The notes below the pieces were generated by a model, which ran no database searches, was not told the origin of the DNA, and saw nothing but the letters and a program-made list of their open reading frames with translations. This document shows, piece after piece, positions 13,356-49,739 of a DNA stretch of 64,000 nucleotides. Made by a program: the position numbers and the translations under genes. Each line of letters begins with the position of its first letter. Within the stretch, counting starts at the first letter, position 1. The DNA is taken from positions 140,632 to 204,631 of the forward strand of contig CAVUVW010000010.1 of NCBI GenBank assembly GCA_963745035.1, in the 5' to 3' direction. This stretch comes from an uncultured delta proteobacterium. GTDB lineage: Bacteria > Desulfobacterota > Binatia > UBA9968.

Positions 13356-14858
13356 ATGACGCGGATGCAACGTTTCTTTACCGGCTTGGGTTATTGTGCA
13401 GCGGCCCTCTTGCTCGTTGCCGTCATCGCGGGGGCGTGGTTAGTGGGACGCTTCGGCGCCGATATCCCCGTACCGTACAAGGACGATCTCGAACATTTCA
13501 AATACGGCTCCCTCGGCAGCGAGCACGAGTTCGGCGTGCCGTATTGGATCTGGCGAGCGCTGCCGGAGTTGTTTCAAGACAAGCTGCCACCGGGCGGCAA
13601 AGGCTGGCAGTCGGTCGGTTTTGTTTTCGAAAAGGGCAAAGATCTGCCGGTCGGGATGTCGCAGCGCCGCTATCTTGGCTTCGACGTTGTCTGGCTCAAC
13701 TGTGCCTTCTGCCACGCCGGCACCGTGCGCGAGACTCCCAAAAGTGAGCCCAAAGTTTATAGCGCCATGCCGGCCAACACCTTCGACTTCCGCGCGTTCA
13801 TGCGCTTTCTCTTCGCCACGGGCGAGGATCGGAGATTTACGCCGCAGGACATTTTGCGCCAGATCAAAATCATCCGCCAACGCGAGGGCCTCGACGATTT
13901 GCCGCTCATCGATCGTCTGGTGCTGCGTTTCTACGGCATCTACTACATGCGCGAGCGCATCCTTGCGCTGCGTGACCGCTTACAGTTCATCGCCGAGCAG
14001 CCCGAGTGGGGACCGGGGCGCGTCGACACCTTCAATCCGCTGAAAGCGTATTTCAACTTCCCGCCCGAGCAGCTTGCCAAAGAAGAGCGCATCGGCACCA
14101 CCGATTTTCCCTCGATCTGGAATCAGGGCCAGCGCGAAACGCTGAAAATGAATCTCCATTGGGACGGCAACAACGTTTCGCTGGAAGAGCGCAACCGCAG
14201 CGCAGCCATGGGCACCGGGATCACGCCGCCGACCGGTGATCGAAAAAGCTTAAAGCGCGTTGCCGATTGGCTACGCAATCTGCCGGCGCCGCCGTATCCG
14301 TTCGCCATCGACAAGAATCTCGCCGGCCAGGGCGCGCCGATCTACAAACAATATTGTTCCTCGTGCCACGGCGCCGACGGCAAAGATTTTCGCGGCGAGC
14401 AAGTCGGCAAAGTCGTGCCGATCGCCGATATTGCCACCGACCGTTGGCGTCTCGACTCGTACACGTACGACGTCACAGTGAATCAAAATCTCATTTTCGC
14501 CGGCTACGAGGGGGAGCGGTTCAGCCACTTCCGCAAAACCTTCGGCTACGCCAATAGCCCGCTCGACGGCGTCTGGTTGCGCGCGCCGTACCTTCACAAT
14601 GGCTCGGTGCCGACGTTACGCGACTTGCTCGAGCCAAGCGCACAGCGGCCTAAAACTTTTTACCGCGGCTACGACGTTTACGATCAAAAGAAGGCGGGCT
14701 TTATTTCGGACGTGAGCGAGGAAGGCGGGCGCAAATATTTTCTCTACGACACGGGACAGGACGGGAATTCCAACAGGGGCCATGAGGGAAAGCGCTACGG
14801 CACGGAGCTCACCATGGCGGAGAAGGATGCGCTGGTCGAATACCTCAAGACTTTCTGA
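13356..14858 (+). CDS. Di-heme c protein 1, RoxA/MauG-like, N-terminal membrane anchor
   Basis: CAFCH, CSSCH, 'PLDGVWLRAPYLHNGSVPTLRDLL', 'NRGHE', 'ALVEYLKTF'. Confidence 0.85.
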   Translation: MTRMQRFFTGLGYCAAALLLVAVIAGAWLVGRFGADIPVPYKDDLEHFKYGSLGSEHEFGVPYWIWRALPELFQDKLPPGGKGWQSVGFVFEKGKDLPVGMSQRRYLGFDVVWLNCAFCHAGTVRETPKSEPKVYSAMPANTFDFRAFMRFLFATGEDRRFTPQDILRQIKIIRQREGLDDLPLIDRLVLRFYGIYYMRERILALRDRLQFIAEQPEWGPGRVDTFNPLKAYFNFPPEQLAKEERIGTTDFPSIWNQGQRETLKMNLHWDGNNVSLEERNRSAAMGTGITPPTGDRKSLKRVADWLRNLPAPPYPFAIDKNLAGQGAPIYKQYCSSCHGADGKDFRGEQVGKVVPIADIATDRWRLDSYTYDVTVNQNLIFAGYEGERFSHFRKTFGYANSPLDGVWLRAPYLHNGSVPTLRDLLEPSAQRPKTFYRGYDVYDQKKAGFISDVSEEGGRKYFLYDTGQDGNSNRGHEGKRYGTELTMAEKDALVEYLKTF

Positions 14859-14894
14859 TTGATCCGATTGGCCTGGGGCGGCTGCGGAGGAACG

Positions 14895-16359
14895 ATGGCG
14901 GAACCGCAAAGGAAAAAATCCTGGTGGAAGATCGTGTTGCTGCTTGTCGTCGTTTTCGCGGCGGTGGGCGGCGCGATCGGTTGGTATAAGTTCTTTCGCG
15001 AAGAGCCGCAGCCGGATTGGATGACGGCCACGCCGGACATGCGCTTCAAGTATGGATCCATTGGCGCGGAGCATGACGCCGGCATTCCCTACTGGATCTT
15101 TTTCGTGCTGCCGCGCATGTTTCCGGAAAAACTGCCGGGCCCGGGCGGTTTGGCGTCCTTGGGCGTCGCCTGGGAACAGGGCCAGGAACTGCCGATCGGC
15201 TTCACGAAAAAAGTCATCGGTTTTGCGCGGGTGGCCAATAATTGCGCGTCGTGCCACACCGCGAGTTATCGAAAAAGTCCCGACGAGAATCCGACCTTTG
15301 TTCCCACCGGACCGAACCATACACTCAATCTGCAGGCGTTTTTCCGGTTCGTGGTCGATTGCGCCAAGGATCCCGCGCTTCAACGCTGACGAGATCATGC
15401 GCGAGATCGCGTTGGTCTACGATCTGCCGCTGCTCGATCGCATGATCTACCGCTATTTGCTGATCCCGATCACCAAGAAACGCCTGCTCGAGCGAGAAGC
15501 GCAATTCAAGTGGGTCTATCACAAGGAATTTCCGTTGTGGGGCCGGGGGCGCGACGACGCCATGAACCTCACCAAGTATTTTCTCCTCAATTGGCCGATG
15601 GACGATACGCTTGGCCCGACCGACATGCCGTCGGTATGGAATCTCAAGAAGTACCGGCCCGAGAAGGGCATGCTCATGAATCTCGCCGGCGACAGCCACG
15701 ACGCGCGCTCGGTGATCATCGATTCGGCCCTCGGCCTGCTCGCCGCCGCGCCCAATGACCGTGACGAGTTCATGGGAGAGATCGATTGGCTGGTGCAATA
15801 TCTCAGCGAGAAACAGGCGCCGCGATTCCCGTTTCCGATCAAAGAGGAGCAGGCGAAAGCCGGCAAGGCAGTCTTCGACGCTAACTGCGCGACGTGCCAT
15901 GCGAGCGAACGGACGGGCACGCGCGTGCCGGTGGAAGAAGTCGGCACCGACCGCGAGCGGCTCAAGTCCTGGAGCAAACAGGCCGCAATCGAATCGAACA
16001 AGGTGGTGCGCAATTTCGGCATTGAGCGGAAGGGTCTGGTCGAAAACGAGCCGAGCGGTTACATCGCGGCGTTTCTCGACGGCATCTGGCTGCGCGCGCC
16101 GTATCTGCATAACGGCTCGGTGCCGACGTTGCGCGATTTGCTCAATCCCGCCGCTGAGCGGCCGAAGATCTTTTACCGCGGCTATGACGTCTACGACCCG
16201 ATCAAAGTCGGTTTCGTGACCGAAGGCCCGGAAGCGCAGCGGATCGGCACGAAGTACGATGTGAGTGAACGGTCCAGCAGTAATCAAGGACATGAATTTG
16301 GCGTGCAGTTACCGGCGGCGGAAAAAGAAGCGCTGCTCGAATATCTCAAGACGCTGTGA
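14895..16359 (+). CDS. Di-heme c protein 2, RoxA/MauG-like (indel near 15372)
   Basis: CASCH, CATCH, 'LDGIWLRAPYLHNGSVPTL', 'NQGHEFG'; paralog of protein 1 ('FKYGSIG.E...GIPYWI'). Confidence 0.85.
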
Positions 16360-24164: not shown

Positions 24165-24680
24165 CTACTTCGTCGGCGGCTTTTTCATCATCTCGTCCAT
24201 GTTGATGTTCGGCATATTCGGCATGCCGGGCATCGAAATGTCGCCGGGCTTTTGCCCGGCTTGGCACGGTCCCAGCCACTTTGCTTCGATCACTGAGGAC
24301 GATTCTTTCATGCCGCGAAGCGGCGGCTCATAGGTGGTTTTGATGTCGGCCTTGTAGGCGGAGTCGAAGCGGCCCGTGAATACGGCGCGCGTCGTCGCGG
24401 TGCTATTTTCCATTTTGCACACCGATTCGGCGACGATCTTTTCGCCTTCCTTGCGCATCTCGCTTTTGCTGCACTGCGTTTTCTGAGTTGCGCCCATCTC
24501 CTTGGTCATCAGATCGTCGGTCTTTTCGTCGATGCACTGTTGCAGCGCGGGCATGCCCTTGCTTTGCGCGCCCGACATTTTTATCTCCCAGAGGCCGGAC
24601 TTCCGTTTGGGCGCATCGAACGAAGCGGCTGCCACCGGACCGGCGACAAGCAGGGCGACGAACAAGGCAAGAACCTGCAT
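24165..24680 (-). CDS. DUF3617-family secreted protein
   Basis: Signal peptide, 'KSGLWEI', 'QQCID', 'AKWLGPC'. Confidence 0.8.
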   Translation of the reverse strand: MQVLALFVALLVAGPVAAASFDAPKRKSGLWEIKMSGAQSKGMPALQQCIDEKTDDLMTKEMGATQKTQCSKSEMRKEGEKIVAESVCKMENSTATTRAVFTGRFDSAYKADIKTTYEPPLRGMKESSSVIEAKWLGPCQAGQKPGDISMPGMPNMPNINMDEMMKKPPTK

Positions 24681-24731
24681 AGAGACCTCCATGAATCGAA
24701 AATTAAGGGAGTTTCGCTTCGGGCGGTGAAC

Positions 24732-25712
24732 TCAGATCGGCGCCGGCGAGTCGAGCTCGAAGCCGAGATCCGAGATCATCCGGTGAGCATCGGAGGCTTC
24801 CTGTCCGGGCGTGGTCAGGTAGCCGTTGACGAAGATCGAGTTCGCAGGATAGAGGCTTAGCGGCTGGAGCGAGCGCAGGTTCACTTCCCGGCCGCCGGCC
24901 ACGCGAATTTCCTTGTCAGGGTTGACGAAGCGAAAAAGACAAAGCGTTTTTAAGCAGCGCTGCGGAGTGAGCTCGCGTTTGCCTTCGAAGGGAGTGGCCG
25001 GAATCGAATTGAGAAAATTCACGGGAATCGAGTCGATGTCCATCGCGCGCAGGGTCAGCGCCAGGTCGATGATGTCTTCGTCGCTTTCGCCCATGCCGAT
25101 GATGCCGCCCGAGCAGGTGCCGATCCCGGCGTGCTTGACGTTTTCGATCGTGGCCACGCGGTCGTCGTAGGTGTGGGTGGTGACGATCTCCGGATGGTGC
25201 GCGCGGCTGGTGTTCAGATTATGATTCACGCGGCCAACGCCCGCATCCTTGAGCTTTTCGGTCTTGTCCTGATTCATGAGGCCGAGGGAGCAGCACACGT
25301 TCATACCGGTTTCTTTGCGGATCTCGCGCACGGCGTCGGCGATGTCGTCGATCTCTTTGTTGGTCGGGCCCCGGCCGCTGTTGACGATGCAAAAGCGCAC
25401 CGCGCCGGCGGCTTTCGCCTGCCTGGCGCTTTCGACCAGCTTTTCTTTGGCCATGAACGGGTAGCGGTCGATGGGCGCTTCGGACACCGAGGATTGCGAG
25501 CAATAGTGGCAATCTTCGGGGCAGAGGCCGCTCTTGGCATTTTGCAAAACGTGGATCTGCACGCGCTTGCCGTAATAGCGATGGCGCACTTTGAAGGCCG
25601 CGCTCAAAAGCTCCGGCAGCTCCTCGTCGCCCGCGTCGAGGACGGCTTGCAACTCCTCGCGTTCGGGGATGATGCCTTGAAGCGCTTTGTCGGCCAACTG
25701 CTGAAAATCCAT
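24732..25712 (-). CDS. bioB: Biotin synthase (radical SAM)
   Basis: 'NAKSGLCPEDCHYCSQS', 'NHNLNTS', 'CSGGIIGMGE', 'SIPVNFL', 'ANSIF..YLTT'. Confidence 0.95.
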   Translation of the reverse strand: MDFQQLADKALQGIIPEREELQAVLDAGDEELPELLSAAFKVRHRYYGKRVQIHVLQNAKSGLCPEDCHYCSQSSVSEAPIDRYPFMAKEKLVESARQAKAAGAVRFCIVNSGRGPTNKEIDDIADAVREIRKETGMNVCCSLGLMNQDKTEKLKDAGVGRVNHNLNTSRAHHPEIVTTHTYDDRVATIENVKHAGIGTCSGGIIGMGESDEDIIDLALTLRAMDIDSIPVNFLNSIPATPFEGKRELTPQRCLKTLCLFRFVNPDKEIRVAGGREVNLRSLQPLSLYPANSIFVNGYLTTPGQEASDAHRMISDLGFELDSPAPI

Positions 25713-25743
25713 TTCGATCCTCCAAAAAATCAGACGATTTTTA

Positions 25744-26208
25744 TCACGCGTGGTCGGGCCTTTGCAAATATGCGTCACGAGCGACGAATCTGCCCCAGAG
25801 GTACAAGAAAGCCGCCAAGACGAAGTGGAAAAAGATCGGTATAGCGCCGCCGAGCCAGCGCATCTCAGGAAGGAAGATCATCGTCAGCGCGTAGCGCAGC
25901 GCCATGCTGCCCGCGTAAGCAGCGCTGAAGCCGATAAGAAAACGCGACCAAGATGGTCGCGTAGCGGCGAAGAAGCCTGTGCCGCGCCAAATGTCCGACG
26001 CAATTTTGATCATCACCACGATCATAACGATCTGAATCGTTAGAAGGGCGGGATAGGGGATGAGACCGGAAGCCCATTCCTTGCTCGACGGCAGCCAATC
26101 GACTGAAAAGAATACGACGAGAGCTTGGCCCAACACTCGAAAGAGGAAAAGCAATGTCAGGAGCGCGAGAACATAGCCATACATCCCTGGCTTCAATGTG
26201 GGTTTCAC
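25744..26208 (-). CDS. Four-helix membrane protein of unknown function
   Basis: Hydrophobic segments, 'LFRVLGQ', 'SGLIPYPALL', 'IPIFFHFVLA'; GTGA overlap with the GH3 stop. Confidence 0.75.
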   Translation of the reverse strand: MKPTLKPGMYGYVLALLTLLFLFRVLGQALVVFFSVDWLPSSKEWASGLIPYPALLTIQIVMIVVMIKIASDIWRGTGFFAATRPSWSRFLIGFSAAYAGSMALRYALTMIFLPEMRWLGGAIPIFFHFVLAAFLYLWGRFVARDAYLQRPDHA

Positions 26209-27888
26209 GGCTGGGATTCGTCGGCGCACTGCACGATCAGTTGAATCTCGCTTGGATCTTCCGGCACGGCGGTCAAGAGCGCAGCTTTGAACTGGACGTC
26301 GCGCGCGCCGCTCTGGACGTTCGCGTCGGTTTTGCGCTCGAACCAGCCCGAGCTCATGACCCAAAGGACCGGCGCGGCTAGCCGGCGCGACTCGCGCTTT
26401 TGGGCATATTCGATATTGAGTTTGCGAAGGCACGCGTCGAACTCGCGCAGCAGCCGCGATAGTTGCTCTTGATCAGGCGAGGCACCGTGCAATTCCACGG
26501 CGAAGGCGTAGAGCGATCTTTCCACGTCGGCACAGGCGCGAAAGTGTCGCAAGGCGACGCCCGCGGCGCTCTGCGCCTGCGCCATGGCCTCAATGACTTG
26601 ATTGACGTGAAGCTTCTCGCCGGTGATGTTGGTTACATCGCGGCCTTTGCGCACGAACTCGATCAAGCGGGGTGCGGTTGTAAAAGCCGGCGACGCGAAC
26701 CACGTCGTTGATATCGTAGCGATAGAGCCCGCCGGGCGTCGTCAGGATCAAATAGTAGCTCGCGCCCTCCTCGAGCTCCGCGCAGGTGAGAACCGTCGGC
26801 ATGGGCTGCCGATTTCTGACTTCGGGAATGAACTCGTAGAAGTTTTCGTCGACGGCGAGAATGCCGGCGGAACCCGTATCGGAGATCGGCAGGGTTATTT
26901 GCGCTTCGCTCGCCATGTATCCGAGGTCGCGCACCGGGGTCTTGTCTGCCGAACCAGCGGGCGAATTCCTTCAAGCGCGTGCCCACCGTGCCGCCTTTCC
27001 AGCAGCCGATGAGCTGCAGTCGCGGCCAATATTCTCTCGGGCGGAGCGTGCCGTCGTACTTGATCAAAGACTCCAGTCGGCGCGCGCGCGCGGGGTTTTT
27101 GCCGAGACGGCTCGCCAGCGCTTTGCGCAATTCCGCCGGCAGGCTGCAACCGGGACGGATGGTGCCGTCGCGAATGTCTTTGAATGATGTCGTGCTTTAG
27201 TCTCGATTCGCGCGTCTCCACCAGCTTGAGAATCGTGCTCGGATTGGGCGTGCCGAAAAACGTAATGTCGCTGTTCCAACGCGAGGCGCATGGTGAGGTA
27301 GTATTTCGCTTCGAAGTCTTTGATCTCGGCGATTTCATAGGGAGCCGCGTAGGCATTCTGGATCCAGCTCGGACTGCTTTGGTAGATGAACCCCGAAGCG
27401 GCGCCGAAGGGGATGCCGCCCGGCGGTTCTTGCCTTCGACCGCGGGACTCACGACGCCGAGCAGCTTGCCGCTGAAAAGATCGGGATGGTCGAGCAGCGC
27501 GCGATGATACCAGAAGCGGGTGAGCTGGCGATGGTTGCGGCGCGACGCTTCGGTGACCGGGATCAGCTTGGGTTGGCCGGTGCTGCCGCTGGTCATCGCG
27601 AACATCAGCGCCGGCTCCGCGGTCAGCACGTTCGTTCTCGCCGTTCTGGGCGCGCTCGACGTAGGGACGCAGGCGCTCGTAGTCGCCGATGGCGACCTGC
27701 GCGCGATATTCGCGGAGAGAAGCGATGGCGTCGAAATGATGATCGCGGCCAAAGCTCGTGGCGCGATTGCGCGAGATCATTTTAAGCAGGAGCTTGTTCT
27801 GAACTTCTTCCGGTTTGGCGGTGAGGCTCTGCCAGCGTGCCCACTGGCGTTCGGTCAGGAATGCGGCGGCTTTCAGCAGAAGGGCCAT
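26205..27888 (-). CDS. GH3-family acyl-acid amido synthetase (several indels)
   Basis: 'TSGSTGQPKLIP', 'YMASE', 'GLYRYDINDVV', 'NITGEKL' across successive frames. Confidence 0.85.
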
Positions 27889-27894
27889 GACATC

Positions 27895-29768
27895 CTAGCG
27901 GTGTATTTCGTGCTTTGCGCCGGCGAGGCGTTCCAGGGCGTCGTCTCTGACGGTGACGCTGAGGCCGCGCGTTTTGAGCAAGCGGCGCGCGCCCGCCGAG
28001 TCCGAACGCGACGTTTTCGAAGGTGACGTCTTCGGCTAGCAGCCAGGTGCCGAAAGAACCTTCGGCGCATTGCGAGCTCGGGTAAATGCGCCGCGAACGT
28101 GCGTCCGGCGGCGGACAAGATTCCGGTTTCGCCCACCTGCGCGCCGACTTGGATCTTGATGCCGGCTTGCTGCGCCAATTGGGCGATCGCCAGACTGCCG
28201 CTGATGCCGCCGCATTTAGAAAGCCGGATATTGAACGAGTCGCAAGCGCCGAGCTCGATCAGTTGGCGCGCCTGCGCGACGGTGACGAGCGATTCGTCGG
28301 CCATGACCGGAATGCCGCAACGATCGCGCACCTGCTTCATGCCGGTGATATCGCCGGCGGCTACAGGCTGCTCGATGCATTGGAGCTGGAACCTGGCGAG
28401 GCGGTGGAGATGCTCCACCGCTTGTTCGGCAGTCCACGCGCCATTGGCGTCGGCACGCAGCTCGACCTCGGCGCCGACCGCTTTGCGCACGGCTTCCATG
28501 CGCGCAAAGTCATCGGCGCCGCCGACCTTGACTTTGATTTGCCGCAGTCCCAGGCGCGCCATCCGTCTTGCGAGAGCGGCCGCTTCCGCCGGTGCGTCGG
28601 CCGAGATCACGCCGCTGTAAACGACTTCGAGGCGGCTGGGGGGAAGTAAATCCGCCAGGGCGCAATGGTCGGCGCGCAGCGCCCAATCCAGAAGCGCCAG
28701 CTCGACGGCGCAAAAAGCGGCGTTCCACGCAACCACGCCGGAGCCGTTTTCCTGCTCCGTCCACTGCGGCATGACGCTCTCAAGATATTCCAGAGTTTCC
28801 CAGCCGGGCGTGAAAGACTCGGCGAAAATCTTCGGCGCCATTCGGTCTTGAATGTGCGCCACCATGGATGCCGTCGTCTCGCCGGTTACGTAGGAGCGGG
28901 GCAAGCTCTCGCCGTAGCCGCTCCGGCCGTCGGCTGCCGGTGACTTTGACGATCACCGAGTCGCTTTCTTCGCGGCTTTGCAGCGCATGGCGAAAGGCCT
29001 GATGAAACGGGATGCGGAGCTGATAGATCGTGATCGATTCGATGCGCCGCGCTTTTGCCGGCGCGGCTTTGCTGTGCGTTCGCCGCCGCGACGCCGCGGG
29101 AAAATAGTGGCGCACGAACAGGTCGTCGCCAAGAGTGAACGCGGCGATGTGGTCGAAGAGATCATCCGAGATTTCGATGAAAAGCCAGATAATCCCGCAC
29201 CACGCTCACGCCTTCCTCGGCATGGCGGATATCGACCTCGGAATGCAGCTCGAACCAGCGCAGCGCCGGCTTGGCGAAGCCGTACAGATTCATGAGGGCC
29301 GCGGCGATCTCGCTCGAACAGCGCGACAGCATGAATTCGAAGCTCATGGTTTCGAGCAACACCGACAAGCAAAGCTCGCGCAGGGTGGCGACCGGCACGC
29401 GCGTCGCGCAAAAAGTCGCGACCCGCCGGCGGGCGTCGACAATCAGCTCGTCGATCTCGCGTTCGGTCGAAGCCCAGCCCACGCGCCATTTCCAGGAGCA
29501 GGGCGGAATGAGGCTTCTCGTCGCTCCGAACCCATCTCTTCCAGGAGATTTTCTTTCAAAAGCGCGGCGGCGTCGGCAGGAAGCGCGGCGAAGCACAGCG
29601 CGACGATGTGCGACGACAGGTAATGGGTGCGAAAAACGTTGCCGATGAATTCGCGCGCGGCTTGCGGCGACGGCGTCGCCCGCGACGAGCCCGCGATACT
29701 CGGCGGAGCCGCGAAAATCGCGCGTGGCGTTGTCGAAAGCAAGATGTGATATGCTCGACCGAGATCAT
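27895..29768 (-). CDS. Probable fusion of a CADD/PqqC-like heme-oxygenase-like diiron domain (about 29100-29768) and an enolase-superfamily epimerase/lactonizing domain (27895 to about 29050); several indels
   Basis: Diiron motifs 'EEMGRSDEKPH', 'FEF', 'WFELHSEVDIRH'. Enolase motifs 'IKVKVG', 'DANGAW', 'IEQP', 'ADES', 'NIRLSKCGG'. The linker 'DDLFVRHYFPAASRRRTHSKAAPAKARRIESITIYQLRIPF' is a single open frame with no ATG. Confidence 0.72.
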
Positions 29769-29811
29769 TGCCCTTCCTCCGGCGCCGCCGATGCGGCCCC
29801 GTCTTCCATGC

Positions 29812-32800
29812 TTAGCGATTGGGTGTCTGCGATCGCTCCTGGGCCATGGCCTTGATTCGTCGCAAATCGACTTTTCCCGAGCCGAGGAGCGGCAGGGCTT
29901 CGACGACGTGGAGATTCTCGCGCTTGGGAATCCAGAGCTTGGGCAGATCGGAGCGATTCAGTTTGTCCCAAAGCTCGTCCCGGCTCATGCCGTTCTGCGC
30001 ATAGAATGCCACGAGTTTCTCGCCGCGCTGTTCGTCGGGCAGCGCGGTGACCGCGGCGGCGGGACTGCCGAGAACTTCGTTCATGGTTTCTTCGACCTTC
30101 ATGTGCGGCACCATCTCGCCGCCGATCTTGCTGAAACGCGAAATCCGATCGACGATGCGGATGAAGCCGTCGTCATCGACGGCGGCGATATCGCCGGTCA
30201 CGTACCAGCCGTGGCGCAGCGCCTGCTCGGTGAGCTGAGGCTGGCCGAGGTAGCCGAGCATCAGATTAGGCCCCTTCACGAGCAGCAGGCCTTCCTCGCC
30301 GGGCGGCAGCGGTCGCTCGCTGTCGCGGTCGACGACTTTGACCGCGACGCCGGGAATCGGATGGCCGACGGTTCCCGGCTTGTGGCCGATCTGTTTTTCC
30401 GCGCCGTCGAGCACGTCTTCGACGTTGACCGACACGACCGGCGCGAGCTCGGTGCAGCCGTAGCCTTCGAAGATGGTGATGCCGTATTTCTCTTGATAGC
30501 CCTTGGCCACCGGCTCGCGGAGCTTTTCGGCGCCGGCGATCACGTAACGCAGCGAGGCGAACTCTTCCTTGGTGCAGCGCCTGAGATAGCCGGCGAAGAA
30601 GGTCGAGGTGCTGATCAGCAAGGTGGCTTTGTATTTCTGCACGGTCTCGCCGATGGTCTTGGCGTCGGTGGGATTGGGATGATAGACGACGCCGAACTCC
30701 GCCAGGAGCGGCAGCCACAACGTGCCGGTGAACCCGAAGGAGTGAAACAGCGGCAGTACGCCCATGATACGATCGCTGGTTTTTAGCGCAATCGCTTGGT
30801 GGATGCCTTCGATATTGGCGACGATATTGTGGTGCGACAGCATCACGCCCTTGGGCGCGCCGGTGCTGCCGCTGGAAAAAATCACGGTCGCCAGGTCGCT
30901 CGCTTTTTGGCTTCTCCGGTGGCGGCGGCACAGCCAGGACGCGGGCAGTAAAAACGCTTTGAGAGCGGCGACTGCTTTTTGCGGCGACGAGAAGTCCTTG
31001 CGGAGCTCTTCGAGAAAAACCATGCCGGGGATATTTTCCAGACCGGCTTTGGACAAAAAGACGCGAGATGTGAGGATCGTCTCGATGCGGCACTGCTCGA
31101 TGGCCGAGGCCATCGCTTCGCGGCCGGCGGTAAAATTCAAATTCACCGGCACTTTGCCGGCGAGAAGGACGGCGATGTTTGCGAGCGCGCCGCCCACCGA
31201 GGCAGGCAGCAACACTCCCACCATCTGCTGTTGTCCGCAGCGCTTTTGGATCCAGCCGGACAACAAGAGGCTGCCGATCAGAGTCTTTCCGTAGCTCAGC
31301 TCGGTGCCGGTGGTGTCGGCCATACAAAAGGAAAACCAGCGCCGCTTCGCGCTTTCGATGAATCTCGTGTGCAGCAGATCGGCGGCGCTCGGACGATGGT
31401 CAAAGGCGTTGCTCTCGAGCACGGCAACGGCCCCCCGCACGTCCGCTGCGGTCGCATCGGAAGGAAGCGGCGATCCGAAGGAAACCGTGACGGGATCAAA
31501 CCAGCGCTTGGGCCATTTCCAAAAAAATTTCCCGTCCTTGAAGCTGAAGATGCTGCCCCACAATTGATCGAGGTGCACGGGGATGATCGGCACCGAGGTG
31601 CCTTCGACGATTTTTTCGAAGCCGCGTTTGAACGAGCGCAAACGGCCGTTTCGGCTGATCGCGCCTTCGGCGAAAATGCACACGACGTGGCCCTTGTCGA
31701 GCTCGTTGCGCGCGTGCTTGAGCGATTGCACGATATCGCGCCGATTGCTTGCCGACACCGGAATCGCGTGCATCAGGCGAAAAAGCCAGTTCAAGAATTT
31801 GATGTCGTAATAGTCGCGGTGCAGCATGAAGCGCACCAGCCGCGGCAGCGATCCACCGATCATGAACGCGTCGACGAAAGAAACGTGATTCGAAACCAGT
31901 AGCGCGGGGCCCTGGAGCGGCAGATTTTCCGCGCCGACGACCTTGATACGATACACCGTGTGCGTGAACAGCCAGAGGATCAGCCGGACGAAATAATCGG
32001 GGAGAAAATAGAGAATCGCCAGGGTGCCGGCCAAGGTCACCAAACCGGTCAGCAAAATGATCGTTTCCGGCGTGAAATCCAGCGGCGTCTTGAACAGCCA
32101 GTGGACCGCGGCGGCGAGCACGATGCCGAGGGTGTTCATGAAATTGTTGGTGGCGATCAATTGGCCTTTTTCCTCGCGTCCGGCTTTTTGCTGGAGAAAG
32201 GCGTTGAGCGGCACGGCGAATAGTCCCGCCGAGAAGCCGAGGCCGACGAGCGCGGCGGCGGTGTGCGCATAGGACGGCGCCGAGAGCGCCACCAAGCCGA
32301 GACAGATGCCCATGGCCACGGAGCCCAGCGGCACCAATCCCATTTCGATATGATCGCCGGACAGCCGTCCGGCGGCGAGGCTGCCCAAGCCGATGCCGAC
32401 CGCCAGGAACGTGCCGAGCAAGCCGATGTGAAACTCATCGAGTCCGAGCAGTTCCTTGCCGAAGAACAGCATATTGATCTGTACCAGCGCGCCGAGAAAC
32501 CAGAAATAAGAAATGCCGATCACGGTCAGCCAGAGAGGGCGATCGCGGCGCAGGCGGCGCAGGCCGTCGACGATTTCGCCGAACGGATTCAGCCGGAAGA
32601 GCTTCGCCGCGCCCGACGGCGCCACCCGGGCGATGCCCTGGCTGGTGAATACTCCTAGAATCGCAATGACCAGCATCAACAAACCGATCAACGGCAGGTT
32701 GTGCTTCCAAAGCGCAAAGATCGCGCTGCCCATGGACGTGCCGAGGATGATCGCCATGAACGTGCTCATCTCCAGGAGGCCGTTGCCGCGTGAGAGGTCC

Positions 32801-33213
32801 TTGTCGGGAAGCATCTCCGGTAAAATCCCGTACTTGGCGGGACTGAAAAACGCCGCGTGGAGGCCCATGAGAAACACCAGCACGAGCATGGACTCGAGAT
32901 GGCCGATATAAAATGCAGCGATCGCCAAAACCATGATCACGACTTCGAAAAATTTGACCGCGACCAGAATCGTCCGCTTGCTGTACACGTCGGCCAGATG
33001 GCCGGCGTAGCCGGAAACCAGCGCTGAGGGCAGAATGAACAAGAAAGCGATGATCTCGACGTAGCCGGGACCGCCGTGCACCGCGAGATTCAACGCGACG
33101 AAGGAAACGACGATCTTTAGGAAATTGTCGTTGAAAGCGCCGAGAAACTGCGTCCAGAAAAACGAGAAAAAACCAGGTTGTCTCAGGGTGTCGCTATATT
33201 TGCCGTTGCTCAT
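29812..33213 (-). CDS. aas: Aas-type MFS-acyltransferase-acyl-ACP synthetase fusion
   Basis: 'TQFLGAFNDN' MFS domain, 'NHVSFVD'/'IFAEG' PlsC domain, 'FSSGSTGAPKG'/'EGYGCTE' AMP-binding domain. Confidence 0.93.
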   Translation of the reverse strand: MSNGKYSDTLRQPGFFSFFWTQFLGAFNDNFLKIVVSFVALNLAVHGGPGYVEIIAFLFILPSALVSGYAGHLADVYSKRTILVAVKFFEVVIMVLAIAAFYIGHLESMLVLVFLMGLHAAFFSPAKYGILPEMLPDKDLSRGNGLLEMSTFMAIILGTSMGSAIFALWKHNLPLIGLLMLVIAILGVFTSQGIARVAPSGAAKLFRLNPFGEIVDGLRRLRRDRPLWLTVIGISYFWFLGALVQINMLFFGKELLGLDEFHIGLLGTFLAVGIGLGSLAAGRLSGDHIEMGLVPLGSVAMGICLGLVALSAPSYAHTAAALVGLGFSAGLFAVPLNAFLQQKAGREEKGQLIATNNFMNTLGIVLAAAVHWLFKTPLDFTPETIILLTGLVTLAGTLAILYFLPDYFVRLILWLFTHTVYRIKVVGAENLPLQGPALLVSNHVSFVDAFMIGGSLPRLVRFMLHRDYYDIKFLNWLFRLMHAIPVSASNRRDIVQSLKHARNELDKGHVVCIFAEGAISRNGRLRSFKRGFEKIVEGTSVPIIPVHLDQLWGSIFSFKDGKFFWKWPKRWFDPVTVSFGSPLPSDATAADVRGAVAVLESNAFDHRPSAADLLHTRFIESAKRRWFSFCMADTTGTELSYGKTLIGSLLLSGWIQKRCGQQQMVGVLLPASVGGALANIAVLLAGKVPVNLNFTAGREAMASAIEQCRIETILTSRVFLSKAGLENIPGMVFLEELRKDFSSPQKAVAALKAFLLPASWLCRRHRRSQKASDLATVIFSSGSTGAPKGVMLSHHNIVANIEGIHQAIALKTSDRIMGVLPLFHSFGFTGTLWLPLLAEFGVVYHPNPTDAKTIGETVQKYKATLLISTSTFFAGYLRRCTKEEFASLRYVIAGAEKLREPVAKGYQEKYGITIFEGYGCTELAPVVSVNVEDVLDGAEKQIGHKPGTVGHPIPGVAVKVVDRDSERPLPPGEEGLLLVKGPNLMLGYLGQPQLTEQALRHGWYVTGDIAAVDDDGFIRIVDRISRFSKIGGEMVPHMKVEETMNEVLGSPAAAVTALPDEQRGEKLVAFYAQNGMSRDELWDKLNRSDLPKLWIPKRENLHVVEALPLLGSGKVDLRRIKAMAQERSQTPNR

Positions 33214-33347: not shown

Positions 33348-34130
33348 ATGGAAATCACATGGTATCAGGTTCCCCGGTGGCAAGGATATCACGGTTTGCT
33401 GCACGGCTTTGCCGGCCGCGGGGGCGGAAAAAGCGCCGGGCCTTATGCCGGATTGAACACTTCGTATCGCGTCGGGGACGACCCGAAGATCGTCAGCCAG
33501 AACGTCTGCGATTTGAAGCTCGCCGCCGGCATTCACGACGGCAGGATCGTCACCATGCGCCAGGTCCACGGCGACGATATCGTCGAAGTCAAGGACAAAA
33601 AGCTCAAAGAAGCCGGCGAGGCCGACGGGATGATCACCGCCGAGCAGGATATTTTTCTTGCCGTGCTCACCGCCGATTGCGTGCCCATGCTGTTCGTTGC
33701 GCCGAAGCAGAGACTCGCCGCCGCCGTGCACGCCGGCTGGCGCGGCACCTTGGCGGGGATCGCGGAGAAGACCGTGCGGCTATTTCAAACGGAGCGCGGC
33801 ATCGAGCCGGCGGATTTGGAAGTCGCGCTCGGCCCCTCCATCGGTTCGTGCTGCTACGAAGTCAAAGACGATGTTGCCGGCCCGCTGATGAAAAGATGGG
33901 GCAAGCTGACGACGCCGAGCGTCTTTGTCCGGGAAGGCAAGTCCTATATCGATTTGCGACGCCTCAATCGGGACATTCTCCGCGCCGCCGGCGTGCCCGG
34001 AAGCCAGCTCTTTCAAGTGGGGCCGTGCACCCGCTGCGCCGCGGAAGAATTCTTCTCTTACCGCCGCGCGGGCGGCGAAACCGGCAGGCAGATGAGCCTG
34101 GTCGGTTGGCTGCCTGCCGCGTCGACTTAA
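33348..34130 (+). CDS. pgeF: PgeF/YfiH-family protein
   Basis: 'QVHG', 'LTADCVP', 'HAGWRG', 'GPSIG..CYEV', 'FFSYRR'. Confidence 0.93.
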   Translation: MEITWYQVPRWQGYHGLLHGFAGRGGGKSAGPYAGLNTSYRVGDDPKIVSQNVCDLKLAAGIHDGRIVTMRQVHGDDIVEVKDKKLKEAGEADGMITAEQDIFLAVLTADCVPMLFVAPKQRLAAAVHAGWRGTLAGIAEKTVRLFQTERGIEPADLEVALGPSIGSCCYEVKDDVAGPLMKRWGKLTTPSVFVREGKSYIDLRRLNRDILRAAGVPGSQLFQVGPCTRCAAEEFFSYRRAGGETGRQMSLVGWLPAAST

Positions 34131-35368: not shown

Positions 35369-36148
35369 GTGGCCATTCTTGAAGTTCAAGAATCTCGCGA
35401 AGAGCTACCGGCAAGCGGGCGGCGAAACTACCGCGGCGATAGGCAATATTTCCTGCCGCGTGGAACGGGGTGAATTCGTTTCCTTCGTTGGACCCTCCGG
35501 CTGCGGCAAAACCACACTGCTCATGACGATCGCGGGCCTGTTGGCGCCGAGCGACGGCCGAGTGGTGGTCAACGGCAAAGTGGTCAACGGTCCTCCCGCC
35601 GATCTGGTCCTGTTATTTCAGGAGTACAACAAATCTTTATTTGCCTGGCGCACCGTGCTCGGCAATGTCCGCTTCGGTCTGGAAGCGCGCGGCGATCATT
35701 CGCCTGATACCGCGAGCCGGGCGCGCGCGCTGATCGAGCTGGTCGGGCTCGCGCGGTTTTGAAGCTCATTATCCGTGGGAGCTTTCCGGCGGCATGCAGC
35801 AGCGGGTGGCGATCGCCCGCGCGCTCGCCTACGCGCCGGAAGTCTTGCTGATGGATGAACCTTTCGGCTCGCTCGATGCGCTGACGCGGCTGGAGCTGGA
35901 AGACACCTTGTTGCGGCTTTGGGCCGAGCTCAAGACCACCATCGTGTTCATCACCCACGATATCGAGGAAGCGATTTATCTCTCGGACCGGATCTGGGTG
36001 TTGAGCCGAAGGCCGTCCGCAGATTATCGAAGAATTGCCGGTCGCGCTTTCCCGGCCGCGCGATCAGGTGGCCACCCGCGCCGAAGCGCGCTTCATGGAA
36101 CTGAGAAATCACATTTACCGCAGGATCAGTAATCCGGCTACGGCGTGA
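35369..36148 (+). CDS. ABC transporter ATP-binding protein (TauB/SsuB-like; several indels)
   Basis: 'GPSGCGKTT', 'LSGGMQQR', 'LLMDEPF', 'THDIEEA'. Confidence 0.9.
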
Positions 36149-46097: not shown

Positions 46098-49000
46098 CTA
46101 CTTCATGGAAAAATCGACGCGGTTGGGGCGCCCCTTGAGCTTGGCGCGCTCTTCGGCGCTGAATGGTTTGGCCGCGACGACGGAAAGCCGCTCACCGGTC
46201 ACCTGGTTGGTCGCCAGGAGCGCATCGCGCACGACTTGCGCGCGCTGGCTGGCGAGCTGGCGCATGTCGTCGTCGCTCGCTTTGGCGTGCTGCATCATGA
46301 ATTTTTCCATTTCGGGCGCTGGAAGGTCCTGAGCCAGGCCGATCACGTTTCTCGGTTTGGGAAAGCTTTCTTCACCATAGGCGGCTTTCAAATATTGCGG
46401 ATACTCGTTTGGCGCGATTTGAACGTCGTCCACCGAGCGCGGCGCTTCTCCTTTGCGCGCCAGTTCCTTGAGTTTTTGCGCTTTGACCTTACGTTCGATG
46501 CTCGACTCGTTTCAGACCGTCCAGATCGGTCAGCGGATCGACGCGGCCGATGACTTCCAGATTGAGCGCGGGCCGGTTGTTCAGCGCTTTCGCGAGGGTG
46601 GCGATCTTTGCCTGCGCTGCTTGATTCAGGTTGGCCTTACCGGTTTCGAACTCGATATAACTCAATTCATCGCCACCGCCGCCCCCGCCGCCGAAGGCCG
46701 ACGCCAACAACGAAAATGGCGCGGTGACCGCGCGCGTGATGAGGTTGATGACGATGCGCAGCACGATGCCGCCGACGCTGAATTGCGGATCGTCAAGCGA
46801 GCCGCTGATCGGCAGATCGACGTCGATGACGCCGTTGCTGTCTTTCATCAGAGCGACCGCGAGCAGCACCGGCAGCTTGGTGGCGGTCGGGCTCTCGATC
46901 TTCTCGCCAAAGGTGAGCTGGTTCAAAATGATCTTGTTCTGTGCGCTCAGCTTGCGATTTTCCACTCTGTATTTAACGTTGAACGAAAGCTTGCCGCGCT
47001 CGATGCCGTAGCCGACGTATTTGGCGGAGTAGGGCGTCATCGGGCTCAATTCGATGTCTTTGGCGTCGGCGACGATGTCGAGAAAAAGGTCCTTGGAAAG
47101 CGGATTGATCTTGCCTTTGATGTCGACCGGCGCGGCGTTGTCGAGCCGCGCTTGCAGATCGAGATCGCCCGGCGTCTCCGGCTTGAGCTCGGAAATGGCG
47201 CCCTGCACGCCTGTCAGATTCGCCGAATAATTCGGCTTGACGAAAAAATCGCTGAAATGGATATTCCCTTCCTTAAGATTGATTTTGCCGATGCTGATGG
47301 CTCTGGGCGGGTCTGCATCTGCCGGAACAGGAGGCGATTGTTCGACCGACTTCTGCTCGCCTGCCCTCGTCTCGACCGGTTTTGCTTCTGACGCGGCCGC
47401 GCCTTGTTTGTCGTCTTGCGCCGTCAAATTTTGCAGGTTCAGTTTGCCGTCGGCGCCGAGAACCAGCCGCGAATAGAACTCCGCGAGCGTGATCTCGCCG
47501 ATGCGCAACTGGAAGGGCTGCAAATCAAATTGCAATGCATCGAGCGCCAGTGTCTTCCAGCGGAGAAGATCCTGCTGACCGTTCTTCTCCACGGCGCCGA
47601 AGTCGGCGACCTGGACACCGCCGTGATAGTTGACTTTCGCGGGACCGCCGCCGCTTGCATTGAACGCAAGCTCGCCTTTGGTGCCGATGCGGCCGCCGGT
47701 CAGCATGAAATTGACCTGGTCGAGATAGGGCTGAAACGACACCAGGTCCACGTCGCGGGCGTCGACGACGAACTTGCCGTTGACGGGATTGGCCGTGGCC
47801 GTGCCGGCAAGTCGCAAGACGCCTTTGTCGTTGATACGCGCGCGCACGGTCGCCCTGCCGCGCTGGTTCGTCGCCGTCGAGAAGTTTTCGCCGCGCACGG
47901 CGAGGTCGGAAATGCTGAGCTTTGCCGGCGTGGCGTTGCTGCGGTCCTCGACGATGACCCGAAAGCGGTCCAGCATGATCTGCTTCGCGTCGACGCGCCA
48001 TTCTCCTTCGCCCGGTTTTGCCGGCGAGGTGGGCGCCGGAGACAGGGGCGAAGGTTTGGCAATGCGCGCTAAATTCAACGTGCCGTCGGCGTCGCGCTGG
48101 ATGTAGCCGTGGCCGTCCTTTCCCTCGAGCGCACCGATGACGATGGTCTTTTTTGCCAGATCGATCGCGCCGTCTTTGATCGCCAAGGAGCCGACGCGCC
48201 ACAGCGGTTCGGGCTGGCCGGCGAGCTCGAGACGGAGGCTCCGTAAATTGGCGGACAGCTCGCTCAGCTTGATGTCGGGCTGGCCTTCCTTGTCTTCGAA
48301 AACGTACTGGGTCGAGAGATCGAAAAAGCCGTCTTTGATCTCGCCGGCGATTGCGTCTTCATAATAAGGACGAAGCGCGCCGGGCTTGAGACCTTCGACG
48401 TCGAGCTTGCCTTCGGCGAGGAGCGGCGTGAGCCGCAGCGTTCCCGTGTGGGCGAATTTTTCTTTGGCTTCGGACTCGAATGAGATCTCGACGTTGGCCT
48501 TTTTGCCGGCCTCGTTGGTCAGGCCGGTAATTTTTAGAGTGACGTCGTCCAGGCGCGTCTTGTACGGCCGTTGCGCCTGCTCGTCGGTAAAATGAATGGT
48601 CGCGGAGCCGAGCGCGACCTCCTCGACGGCGTAGACGAACGGTTTGCCGGCGGGCTTTGTTTGCGGTTTGGTTTCCGGCTCCTTGGCAGTCGCCGCTACC
48701 AGGTTCTGCAGGTTGATTTTGCCGTCGCGACCGCGATGCACGTGCAGTTCGAGTCCTTCGGACTTGATCGATTTGAGCGATGTCTTGTTGGCGAAGACCT
48801 CCACCGCATCGATCAGCACGTCGAAAGACGGCAGCTTCATCAATTCCCCGCCGTCCGATTGCAGCAGCGCCAAATCTTTGAGGCCGAGATTGCCGGTAAT
48901 CACGAGAGTCGGCGGATTGTCCTTTGGAAGTTTTGAAAGCGGCGTTGAGCTTGCCCGCCAAGTAGTCCCGACGGCATGGTGAAATTCAGCGCGACCGGCG

Positions 49001-49739
49001 AGTATTCGAGATACTTGGCGATCTCGAGCTTTTCGATGTTGATGTCCGATCGCGCTGTCGCGCGAGTCCTTGAACGGATGGTATCGCCGGCGAGCTGAAA
49101 CGGCGCGCCGTTGATCACCGCGAAAAATTCCGGCTTGACCTTGATATCGACGTGGGTCGGCAGGCTCGAAATGAACGGCACGCCGATTCTGAGCTGGGTC
49201 ACGTTGTGTTTGGTCTTTTCCGGCCGATCGTCGAAGTCGATCTTGCCGTCGACGATCTCAATATTATTGAGCGAGAATCGCGGCGTCGGACCGGGAGGGC
49301 CGCCGGTGAATTCTTCGATGAGATCCTGAAAATTGTATTTGCGATCTTCATTGCGAATCACGCTCACGTAGGGCTTGATCAGCCGCAGTTCCTTGACCAC
49401 CGGCCCCAAGCGAAAGAGCGAGCGCATTTCCAGATTGACGAACAATTCATCGAAGGAAAGCGCGGGAGTGTCTCCCTGCCGCTCTTTCATCAGAAAACCG
49501 CGGATCGCCGCGCTCATGGCGAAAGGATTGATTGCGATCTGCTCGATCGAAACCGGACGGTGGAACTTATCGGACAGCGCGCTGGCGACTTTGCCCCGGA
49601 TCAGTGGCGGTGCGACCAGTCCGAGCAAAACTCCGATAGTGAACAGGATCGAAGCCAACCAGAGGACGATCTTTCGAGTGCGTGGATGCCAAGCGACGCC
49701 GAGGGTTTGCTGGCGGATTTGATGAACGTCTAACGCCAT
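46098..49739 (-). CDS. DUF748-repeat envelope protein with OmpA-like C-terminus (several indels)
   Basis: N-terminal TM, 'NPFAMS', 'YNFQDL', 'PYSAKYVGY.IERGKL', 'IDVDLPISGSLDDPQFS', 'LASQRA..VR'. Confidence 0.85.

Follow-up and report, generated by a model that had tools for sequence, protein, structure and literature searches.

OlsH of Singulisphaera acidiphila uses a free fatty acid and ATP to form N-acyl ornithine (PMC12493201). That activity, reported in 2025, was the first function assigned to bacterial GH3 enzymes (PMC12493201), and its authors suggest that GH3 homologues of bacteria other than planctomycetes may have other N-acyl amino acids as products (PMC12493201; review, PMC12971839). 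Here we describe a bacterial GH3 gene and its partners in a 64,000-nucleotide stretch of DNA from an uncultured delta proteobacterium (assembly GCA_963745035.1, contig CAVUVW010000010.1, positions 140,632 to 204,631; this whole stretch is referred to as the window, and coordinates are positions within it). The minus strand of the window holds a separable cassette composed of a gene fusing a heme-oxygenase-like two-metal oxidase (HDO) to an enolase-superfamily domain, the GH3 gene, and a gene for a four-helix membrane protein; its place in this genus is between aas and the housekeeping gene bioB. We give about even chances to the reading that the cassette would build an N-acyl amino acid, probably one associated with the membrane, and tailor it oxidatively, so that the product would be an oxidatively modified lipoamino acid.

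Like OlsH, the cassette ligase is a bacterial GH3 that presumably needs ATP and joins an acid to an amino acid as an amide, and OlsH is the only NCBIfam family it matches (lyso-ornithine lipid synthetase, NF052613, an equivalog model). It does not qualify as an OlsH orthologue, because the match, strongest over residues 283-514, reaches 126.5 bits where the cut-off is 620; moreover, the HDO, the enolase-type enzyme and the four-helix membrane protein that partner it are lacking in the OlsH/OlsI system. The HDO domain resembles the known heme-oxygenase-like two-metal oxidases (CADD, HrmI, RohS, UndA, and FlcD) in its fold, in its match to PF14518 and in its invariant His and carboxylate residues, but it shares 12 to 17% identity with them, belongs to a separate small clade, and is fused to or adjoins an enolase-type enzyme. 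The enolase domain, in turn, has the KxK motif and the metal ligands of the enolase-superfamily epimerases (YkfB, 1jpm/1tkk; 3jva; 2p88), namely, the D of RADANG, the E of IEQPV and the D of MADES, but differs from them in an Arg at the strand-6 Lys site and in its fusion to an HDO in many lineages. The superfamilies are all known individually; what the searchable literature lacks is their combination, the enolase subfamily that bears the Arg, and the partner protein in the membrane. In that literature, which does not extend to subscription journals, no description was found of a heme-oxygenase-like diiron enzyme combined with the enolase superfamily or with GH3, and a looser search returned only papers on the glycoside hydrolases also called "GH3." Because a GH3 ligase is paired with an O2-activating HDO and a proton-abstracting enolase in a fixed order across distant phyla, the cassette gives a concrete lead toward a lipoamino acid or an amide metabolite that would be new, and toward a reaction new to both superfamilies.

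Organization and conservation of the cassette

The fused HDO-enolase gene (27895..29768, minus strand, as are all cassette genes) runs from an ATG at 29768 to a TAG at 27897-27895. Its N-terminal part, the HDO domain, occupies 29076..29768, and its C-terminal part, an enolase-superfamily domain of the muconate-lactonizing subgroup, occupies 27895..29075, the boundary near 29076 being an estimate from tblastn pieces. Six bases separate the TAG from the ATG (27888-27886) of the gene for the GH3-family acyl-acid amido synthetase (26205..27888), whose TGA (26207-26205) overlaps, as GTGA, the GTG start (26208-26206) of the gene for the small, family-less membrane protein with four predicted long helices (25744..26208). 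Both enzyme genes are frame-broken in the window, as discussed below. The HDO and the enolase of the original prediction, whose family assignments are confirmed, belong to one fused gene, which is intact at 632 amino acids in a same-genus relative.

A scan with an HDO-domain alignment, taking one genome per species, gave 33 loci, to which six proteins were mapped by tblastn. Twenty-two loci belong to the window's own group (titled Deltaproteobacteria, Candidatus Binatia, Syntrophobacter/Syntrophobacteraceae, Thermodesulfobacteriota and, in one case, Verrucomicrobiia), and 11 are distant: two each titled Sericytochromatia, Actinomycetota and Candidatus Binatia (one of the last pair in genome G303) and one each titled Myxococcota, Rokuibacteriota, Gammaproteobacteria, "uncultured proteobacterium" and "uncultured bacterium." In all 25 loci possessing the HDO, the enolase and the GH3 gene, the three lay in this order on one strand; these full loci comprise the own group and loci titled Sericytochromatia, Actinomycetota, Binatia, Rokuibacteriota and "uncultured bacterium," while the loci titled Myxococcota and "uncultured proteobacterium" have the HDO and the enolase only. 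The membrane gene was present, upstream or downstream, in five of the seven distant full cassettes. In a search of 401 genomes sampled from the phylum, only two matched the HDO part at an E value of ≤1e-20, namely, the window's own genome and G303.

The flanking genes behaved differently. bioB lay 3' of the cassette in 13 of the 17 informative own-group loci (five further loci end too early), the exceptions being L055, L059, L060, and L067, and in none of the seven distant loci with several kilobases of flank. Similarly, aas was found with the cassette in the own group and otherwise only in G303, at about 1.5 kb from the membrane gene; G303 has the same four genes in another order and without bioB. 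The cassette is modular and portable, independent of aas and bioB. Three of the own-group exceptions (L060, L067, and L055) represent an alternative context with a class IV aminotransferase gene near the cassette; L060 also has a D-glutamate-cyclase-like gene, an amidohydrolase gene and an ABC transporter, and aas is missing from L060 and L067.

No cultured organism was found among the 120 matches listed per search for close relatives of the HDO-enolase, the GH3 protein and the stand-alone HDO; the listed relatives come from metagenomes or metagenome-assembled genomes. The database names of these relatives are generic: "muconate cycloisomerase," "GH3 auxin-responsive promoter family protein" and "PQQ biosynthesis protein C."

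The GH3 ligase

The three domains of the family, GH3, GH3_M and GH3_C (PF03321/PF23571/PF23572), are all present, in order, on successive pieces of the window gene, which places it in the GH3 family; it is the only GH3 gene of the genome. The intact homologue of G303 scored 219.3, 74.1 and 52.6 bits for the three domains, and the intact same-genus protein P0002 carries all of them in its precomputed Pfam annotation. The OlsH model gave 34.9 bits against the broken window gene in a genome search. The best solved match was the jasmonate ligase JAR1 (4epl), aligned over residues 6-532, and the alignment pairs TSGSTGEPK with SSGTSQGRPK, YMASE with YGSSE, and YRYDINDIV with YRYRLGDVV. We take these three stretches to be the nucleotide-binding and adenylation motifs of GH3 enzymes. 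This assignment fits section 9 of the OlsH report (PMC12493201). Together, the three domains, the JAR1 motif stretches and the OlsH match are evidence for amide formation by the predicted ligase.

The HDO domain

PF14518 (cut-off, 28.9 bits) matched the HDO of G303 with 62.1 bits and two fusions with 65.1 and 68.0 bits, while the fragment readable in the window scored 27.1 bits; profile and fold agree in placing the domain among the heme-oxygenase-like oxidases. Its predicted structure (pLDDT, 94) found CADD by Foldseek with a TM score of 0.68 by query length and 0.75 by target length (probability, 1.00), and also HrmI, PqqC, RohS and UndA; normalized by query length, the TM scores of these matches span 0.61 to 0.68, the highest value by target length is 0.75, and the identity was 12 to 17%. 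Nine residues, E85, E86, H96, E148, E153, H184, E186, D188, and H191 (three His and six carboxylates), were invariant in 15 of 15 cassette HDOs, so that the His/carboxylate metal set is complete by sequence, with the spacing H-x3-D-x2-H. CADD shares this spacing, and the invariant residues presumably correspond to its ligands, six of them probably binding the metals. The conserved metal set and the modeled fold are evidence that the HDO is active.

The clade is small, with 113 representatives at an E value of ≤0.001 among 1.84 billion. Most are stand-alone proteins of about 230 amino acids, some are fused to an enolase, and one, P0309 (572 amino acids), carries an enoyl-CoA hydratase (crotonase) fused to an HDO of the cassette clade. 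Another protein, P0318 (510 amino acids), was considered as a functional HDO-GH3 fusion and rejected, as it has no enolase and misses the first ~190 positions of the GH3 profile; consisting of an HDO and the C-terminal two-thirds of a GH3 protein, it is probably a deletion product like the remnant described below for genome G015.

The enolase domain

The enolase domain matched MR_MLE_C with 164.1 bits and falls within the muconate-lactonizing subgroup of the enolase superfamily. The K-x-K motif is kept in 20 of 20 aligned sequences, and the metal ligands D (DAN), E (EQP/EEP) and D (ADES/LDES) are conserved. Its closest solved relatives are the L-Ala-D/L-Glu epimerase YkfB (1jpm/1tkk), the dipeptide epimerase 3jva, and 2p88 (E values, 1e-39 to 2e-37), the last of which we take to be an N-succinyl-Arg/Lys racemase. 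The kinship with Ala-Glu and dipeptide epimerases and with 2p88 is evidence for an acyl-amino acid as the putative substrate of this domain.

The strand-6 site sets the domain apart from these relatives. The Lys at the end of β-6 is replaced by Arg in all 19 sequences covering the site, the window included (13 cassette-linked and 6 stand-alone), within the motif N-[ILV]-R-[LVI]-S-K (N-I-R-L-S-K in the window), whereas the same site is Lys in five of the five best solved matches and in 1jpm, 3jva and 2p88 (K268 of YkfB by alignment count). The second catalytic Lys of two-base racemases and epimerases was thus not found at the strand-6 end in any of the 19 sequences. Because this Lys is an Arg, one-base chemistry is likely, and the replacement argues against a classical two-Lys racemase. 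Dipeptide epimerases bind the free ammonium group of their substrate through a DxD motif that follows strand 8. The HMMER alignment with YkfB stops short of this region, and that with 2p88 sets A-E-G-S-F-G opposite V-E-L-T-G-P.

Stand-alone enolases of this kind are common in the 401-genome sample (29 loci, L019-L046); they have about 375 to 385 amino acids and are 34 to 41% identical to the cassette domain. None of 28 has a GH3 or HDO gene within 1.5 kb, and the six that were aligned carry N-I-R-L-S-K. These Arg-bearing proteins look like an uncharacterized subfamily of the enolase superfamily.

The kinship with racemases also raises an explanation other than synthesis, namely, salvage or catabolism of D- or N-acylated amino acids, in which acylation of the DgcN/DgcA kind would let an enolase-type racemase invert the α-carbon and the HDO would degrade the product. 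The domain does match the N-acetyl-D-Glu racemase DgcA (115.4 bits) and Ala-Glu epimerase models, and class IV aminotransferase genes lie near L055, L060, and L067, with the D-glutamate-cyclase-like gene in L060. However, all these NCBIfam matches are far below the cut-off, the Lys required for two-base racemization is Arg in every member covering the site, the D-amino-acid neighbors occur in one genus only, and no deacylase is conserved with the cassette. We therefore regard salvage as improbable.

The membrane protein

A model of the membrane protein has four long helices (pLDDT, 82), and R31, Q35, Y59, Q66, R82, Y105, R112, and H135 are invariant or nearly so. No family was found for it in Pfam or NCBIfam, and its Atlas clusters are all unnamed ("hypothetical protein"). 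Foldseek against the PDB gave nothing at an E value of ≤0.001, and a wide VIA-align search gave generic helical hairpins only (Z ≤ 9.0 over ~68 residues, under the meaningful level for helical bundles); these negatives do not make the fold a new one. In the locus titled Rokuibacteriota (L082:11543-12793), the homologue forms the N-terminal part of a 416-amino-acid open reading frame (ORF), the remainder of which has no Pfam match.

Proposed function of the cassette

In the route that we propose for an N-acyl amino acid, the GH3 enzyme would adenylate a carboxylic acid, most likely a fatty acid, and couple it to an amino acid, as OlsH does with ornithine. The enolase domain would take the α-proton from the amino-acid carboxylate, probably for a one-base β-elimination or dehydration and not for a two-base racemization, and the fused HDO would oxidize the same intermediate with O2, the head group being hydroxylated, desaturated or oxidatively decarboxylated; no fixed order of these two steps is implied. 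Finally, the membrane protein would place or export the product.

A lipid context of this kind is supported by the membrane protein itself, by the crotonase-HDO fusion P0309, and by the neighboring genes, namely, aas in the own group and in G303 and the flanks of three distant cassettes. Directly upstream of the cassette in L079 (L079:1800-7941) are genes for a 1,814-amino-acid MprF-like protein with a C-terminal LPG_synthase_TM region and for a PAP2 phosphatase; L081 has an MMPL transporter and a PEMT/ICMT methyltransferase, and L082 has a thioesterase, a sigma-54 activator and acyl-CoA dehydrogenases. About half of the distant-cassette contexts are lipid-related.

Several observations weigh against this proposal. 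GH3 enzymes conjugate non-lipid acids too, and the best solved matches of the cassette ligase are plant hormone ligases, while its OlsH match stays below the cut-off. Furthermore, no OlsI-type α/β-hydrolase O-acyltransferase was found in the same-strand run of the window or conserved across the cassette loci; G303 has two α/β hydrolases nearby, on the other strand or 3.7 kb off. The nearest structural neighbors of the HDO, CADD and HrmI, act on amino-acid-type substrates, but at 14 to 17% identity the reaction cannot be deduced from them. The Arg-for-Lys motif is shared with the stand-alone enolases and so is not specific to the cassette. Among the distant loci, L081 has the HDO and the enolase with no GH3 gene within ~5 kb downstream, and the neighbors are non-lipid in L074 (a Mur ligase and proteases), L075 (regulators), and L077 (a binding protein).

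Some of these observations fit instead a product other than a membrane lipid, namely, a small soluble specialized metabolite; it could serve as a signal, resemble a siderophore or be an amino-acid conjugate that is N-oxygenated. The GH3 enzyme would then join a non-lipid acid to an amino acid, and the HDO would act as an N-oxygenase or a C-C cleaver. This is in line with the plant hormone ligases among the GH3 matches, with the presence of the N-oxygenases HrmI and RohS among the top fold matches of the HDO, with the variable flanks of the distant cassettes, some of which contain regulatory or peptidase genes, and with a patchy, mobile distribution like that of accessory metabolism (the two of 401 genomes mentioned above). 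On the other hand, a membrane protein is conserved in the cassette, the only curated bacterial relative of the GH3 enzyme is a lipid enzyme, four or five contexts have lipid-handling neighbors, and no exporter or NRPS/PKS genes are conserved across the cassette loci. A soluble product consequently appears possible but rather unlikely.

The original prediction had allowed, besides a biotin route, for a cluster making a biotin-like or N-acyl amino acid metabolite. The N-acyl amino acid is the best-supported of these products for the core of HDO-enolase, GH3 and membrane protein, but it does not extend to aas or bioB. Still more speculatively, and with only a small likelihood, the cassette may define a new class of bacterial amino-lipids, in which oxidation of the head group of an N-acyl amino acid, followed by dehydration or decarboxylation, would give a lipid of the dehydro- or enamide type. 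It would involve an undescribed bifunctional HDO-enolase, made of a separate HDO clade and a new Lys-to-Arg enolase subfamily, with a four-helix membrane partner, spread horizontally in uncultured soil and water bacteria under at least six high-level taxon labels.

Relation to biotin synthesis

The cassette is flanked in the window by aas (29812..33213, minus strand) and bioB (24732..25712, minus strand). The TAA of aas (29814-29812) is 43 bases from the ATG of the HDO-enolase gene (29768-29766), which is preceded by GGAGG (29780-29776), and the TGA of the membrane gene (25746-25744) is 31 bases from the ATG of bioB (25712-25710), again with a GGAGG (25723-25719); the start of bioB is thereby corrected to 25712 from 25778. 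The order of the five minus-strand genes and all four of their junctions were confirmed on the sequence, with Pfam agreeing on the gene identities, and no bioF, bioA, bioD, bioC or bioH was found among the ORFs scanned in the window. It had been proposed from this arrangement that aas, the HDO-enolase, the GH3 enzyme, the membrane protein and BioB constitute a non-canonical pimelate, dethiobiotin or biotin route, or a salvage of dethiobiotin.

The window bioB is canonical: it has the Radical_SAM and BATS domains and is the sole match in the genome above the TIGR00433 cut-off (400.8 versus 225 bits). The remaining steps of the canonical pathway (BioF, BioA, BioD, BioB) are encoded elsewhere in the same genome, in a bioF-bioA-bioD run on contig C15 (347953-351039, locus L016), where bioD scored 179.9 bits against a cut-off of 83.3, bioA is in four frame pieces and bioF is in two. 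The run is flanked by genes for an SsuA-like binding protein and a UdgX-type uracil-DNA binding protein. None of the cassette genes falls into a family of the canonical pathway or of the pimelate routes (BioC/BioH, BioW, BioI).

What speaks for a biotin route is the position of bioB downstream of the cassette in the 13 own-group loci and the absence of an assigned gene for the pimeloyl source. No bioC, bioH or bioW lies beside the C15 run, and in the genome BioC and BioH remained below their cut-offs (best, 64.6 versus 184.95 and 69.2 versus 206.95 bits), with no match for BioW. This absence is weak evidence, because the models are narrow: they pass in only 2 (BioC), 1 (BioH) and 2 (BioW) of 14 control genomes. 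Moreover, GH3 enzymes form amides and not the thioester needed by BioF.

Among the relatives, genomes G027, G025 and G028 (other families of the same order, 97 to 98% complete) carry bioB and bioD and lack a cassette-type HDO (best, 32 bits); in G015 (same genus, 98% complete), which keeps bioB and bioD as well, the cassette is reduced to an HDO remnant of 70 residues and a fragment of GH3 next to bioB (C2:671734-674009). In G027 (L090), aas is directly beside bioB with nothing between, and in G025 (L089), a truncated membrane-gene homologue and a 62-residue remnant of the aas N terminus precede bioB; these arrangements show that the aas-bioB neighborhood exists without the cassette. The cassette has been gained or lost repeatedly at this neighborhood, as the three states in G027, G025, and G015 attest. 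The own-group locus L055 likewise has bioB immediately after aas, with the cassette 4.3 kb beyond.

Linkage to bioB is thus confined to the own group and absent from the seven distant flanks, and bioB and bioD are uncoupled from the cassette. With a bioF-bioA-bioD run present elsewhere and cassette-free relatives keeping bioB and bioD, the biotin route is largely refuted, and aas and bioB are neighbors of the cassette by local history or chance and not pathway members. A caution follows for similar loci, since the tight spacing to bioB hinted at a vitamin pathway, whereas comparative genomics shows incidental neighbors.

Interrupted reading frames in the window

With the intact same-genus proteins P0001 (HDO-enolase), P0002 (GH3, 557 amino acids) and P0003 (membrane protein) as tblastn references, the window HDO-enolase and GH3 genes each appear as five pieces in differing frames. 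The HDO pieces cover residues 20-287 of P0001 in two frames, the enolase pieces cover residues 283-632, and the GH3 pieces cover residues 14-557 of P0002; the membrane protein is 65% identical to P0003 over residues 1-161. Same-genus genomes carry intact genes of 632 (HDO-enolase), 557 (GH3), 162 (membrane protein), and 332 (BioB) amino acids.

Public contigs from four runs of four studies are mostly 90 to 99% identical to the window; since one of these runs is possibly the window's own source, they cannot all count as independent. Every covering run agreed on a single-base indel relative to the window in 11 of 12 displayed indel rows, with 11 further rows not displayed. While aas and bioB are unbroken, other window genes are interrupted as well: an ABC ATPase gene (35379-36132) is split into two ORFs, and the ORFs into which a DUF748/AsmA-like gene (46489-49739) is broken correspond to positions 10-257 and 373-930 of the profile, both cases being consistent with indel errors throughout the window. 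Because the same-genus genes are intact, the public contigs agree and other genes are broken alike, we attribute the frameshifts in the HDO-enolase and GH3 genes to assembly errors, and the apparent gene decay is a caution against reading such an artefact as biology. Long homopolymers were considered as the cause of the indels and rejected, as the 11 listed sites have none.

That the cassette of this organism is instead a dead relic made of truly frameshifted pseudogenes is very unlikely. One could point to the concentration of ~23 indel differences in 4.1 kb, with none in the flanking aas (3.4 kb) or bioB, to their occurrence outside long homopolymers, and to the genuinely decayed cassette of G015. 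Yet all four runs, with ~98 to 99% identical sequence, agree on the same one-base differences, bioA and bioF, which belong to an essential pathway and lie on contig C15, are broken alike, as are other genes of the window, and the pieces span residues 20-632 of P0001 and 14-557 of P0002 with no large deletion. Most pieces are 64 to 79% identical to the references, yet three N-terminal pieces across both genes are only 48 to 53% identical.

Other genes of the window

The intact 1,133-amino-acid ORF of aas matches the Pfam families MFS_1, Acyltransferase and AMP-binding and encodes a fused lysophospholipid transporter, acyltransferase and acyl-ACP synthetase. With 1,382.9 bits over residues 9-1128, versus a cut-off of 1,221, it qualifies fully for NCBIfam NF006386 (acyl-[ACP]--phospholipid O-acyltransferase) and in this respect conforms to the Aas/LplT system of lysophospholipid recycling; it differs in adjoining the cassette, which it does in the own group only, being ~1.5 kb away in G303 and absent from the other distant loci.

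The same-strand run was described previously as consisting of five genes. These five are present, but the run comprises six genes, as bioB is followed by a gene for a DUF3617 protein (24165..24692, minus strand; PF12276, 50.5 bits), the last of the run, and the gene upstream of aas (Cu-oxidase_4, 33348-34130) is on the opposite strand. Co-transcription of the run is suggested by the gene spacing only, because scans of the sequence for consensus promoters and terminators gave counts at the chance level (3 versus 2.0 expected and 16 versus 12.0 expected, respectively).

Elsewhere in the window, a stand-alone archaeal-type ThrRS editing domain (PF08915) is encoded at 1634-2053, beside anthranilate synthase genes, and two adjacent RoxA-like cytochrome c proteins are encoded at 13356-16359.

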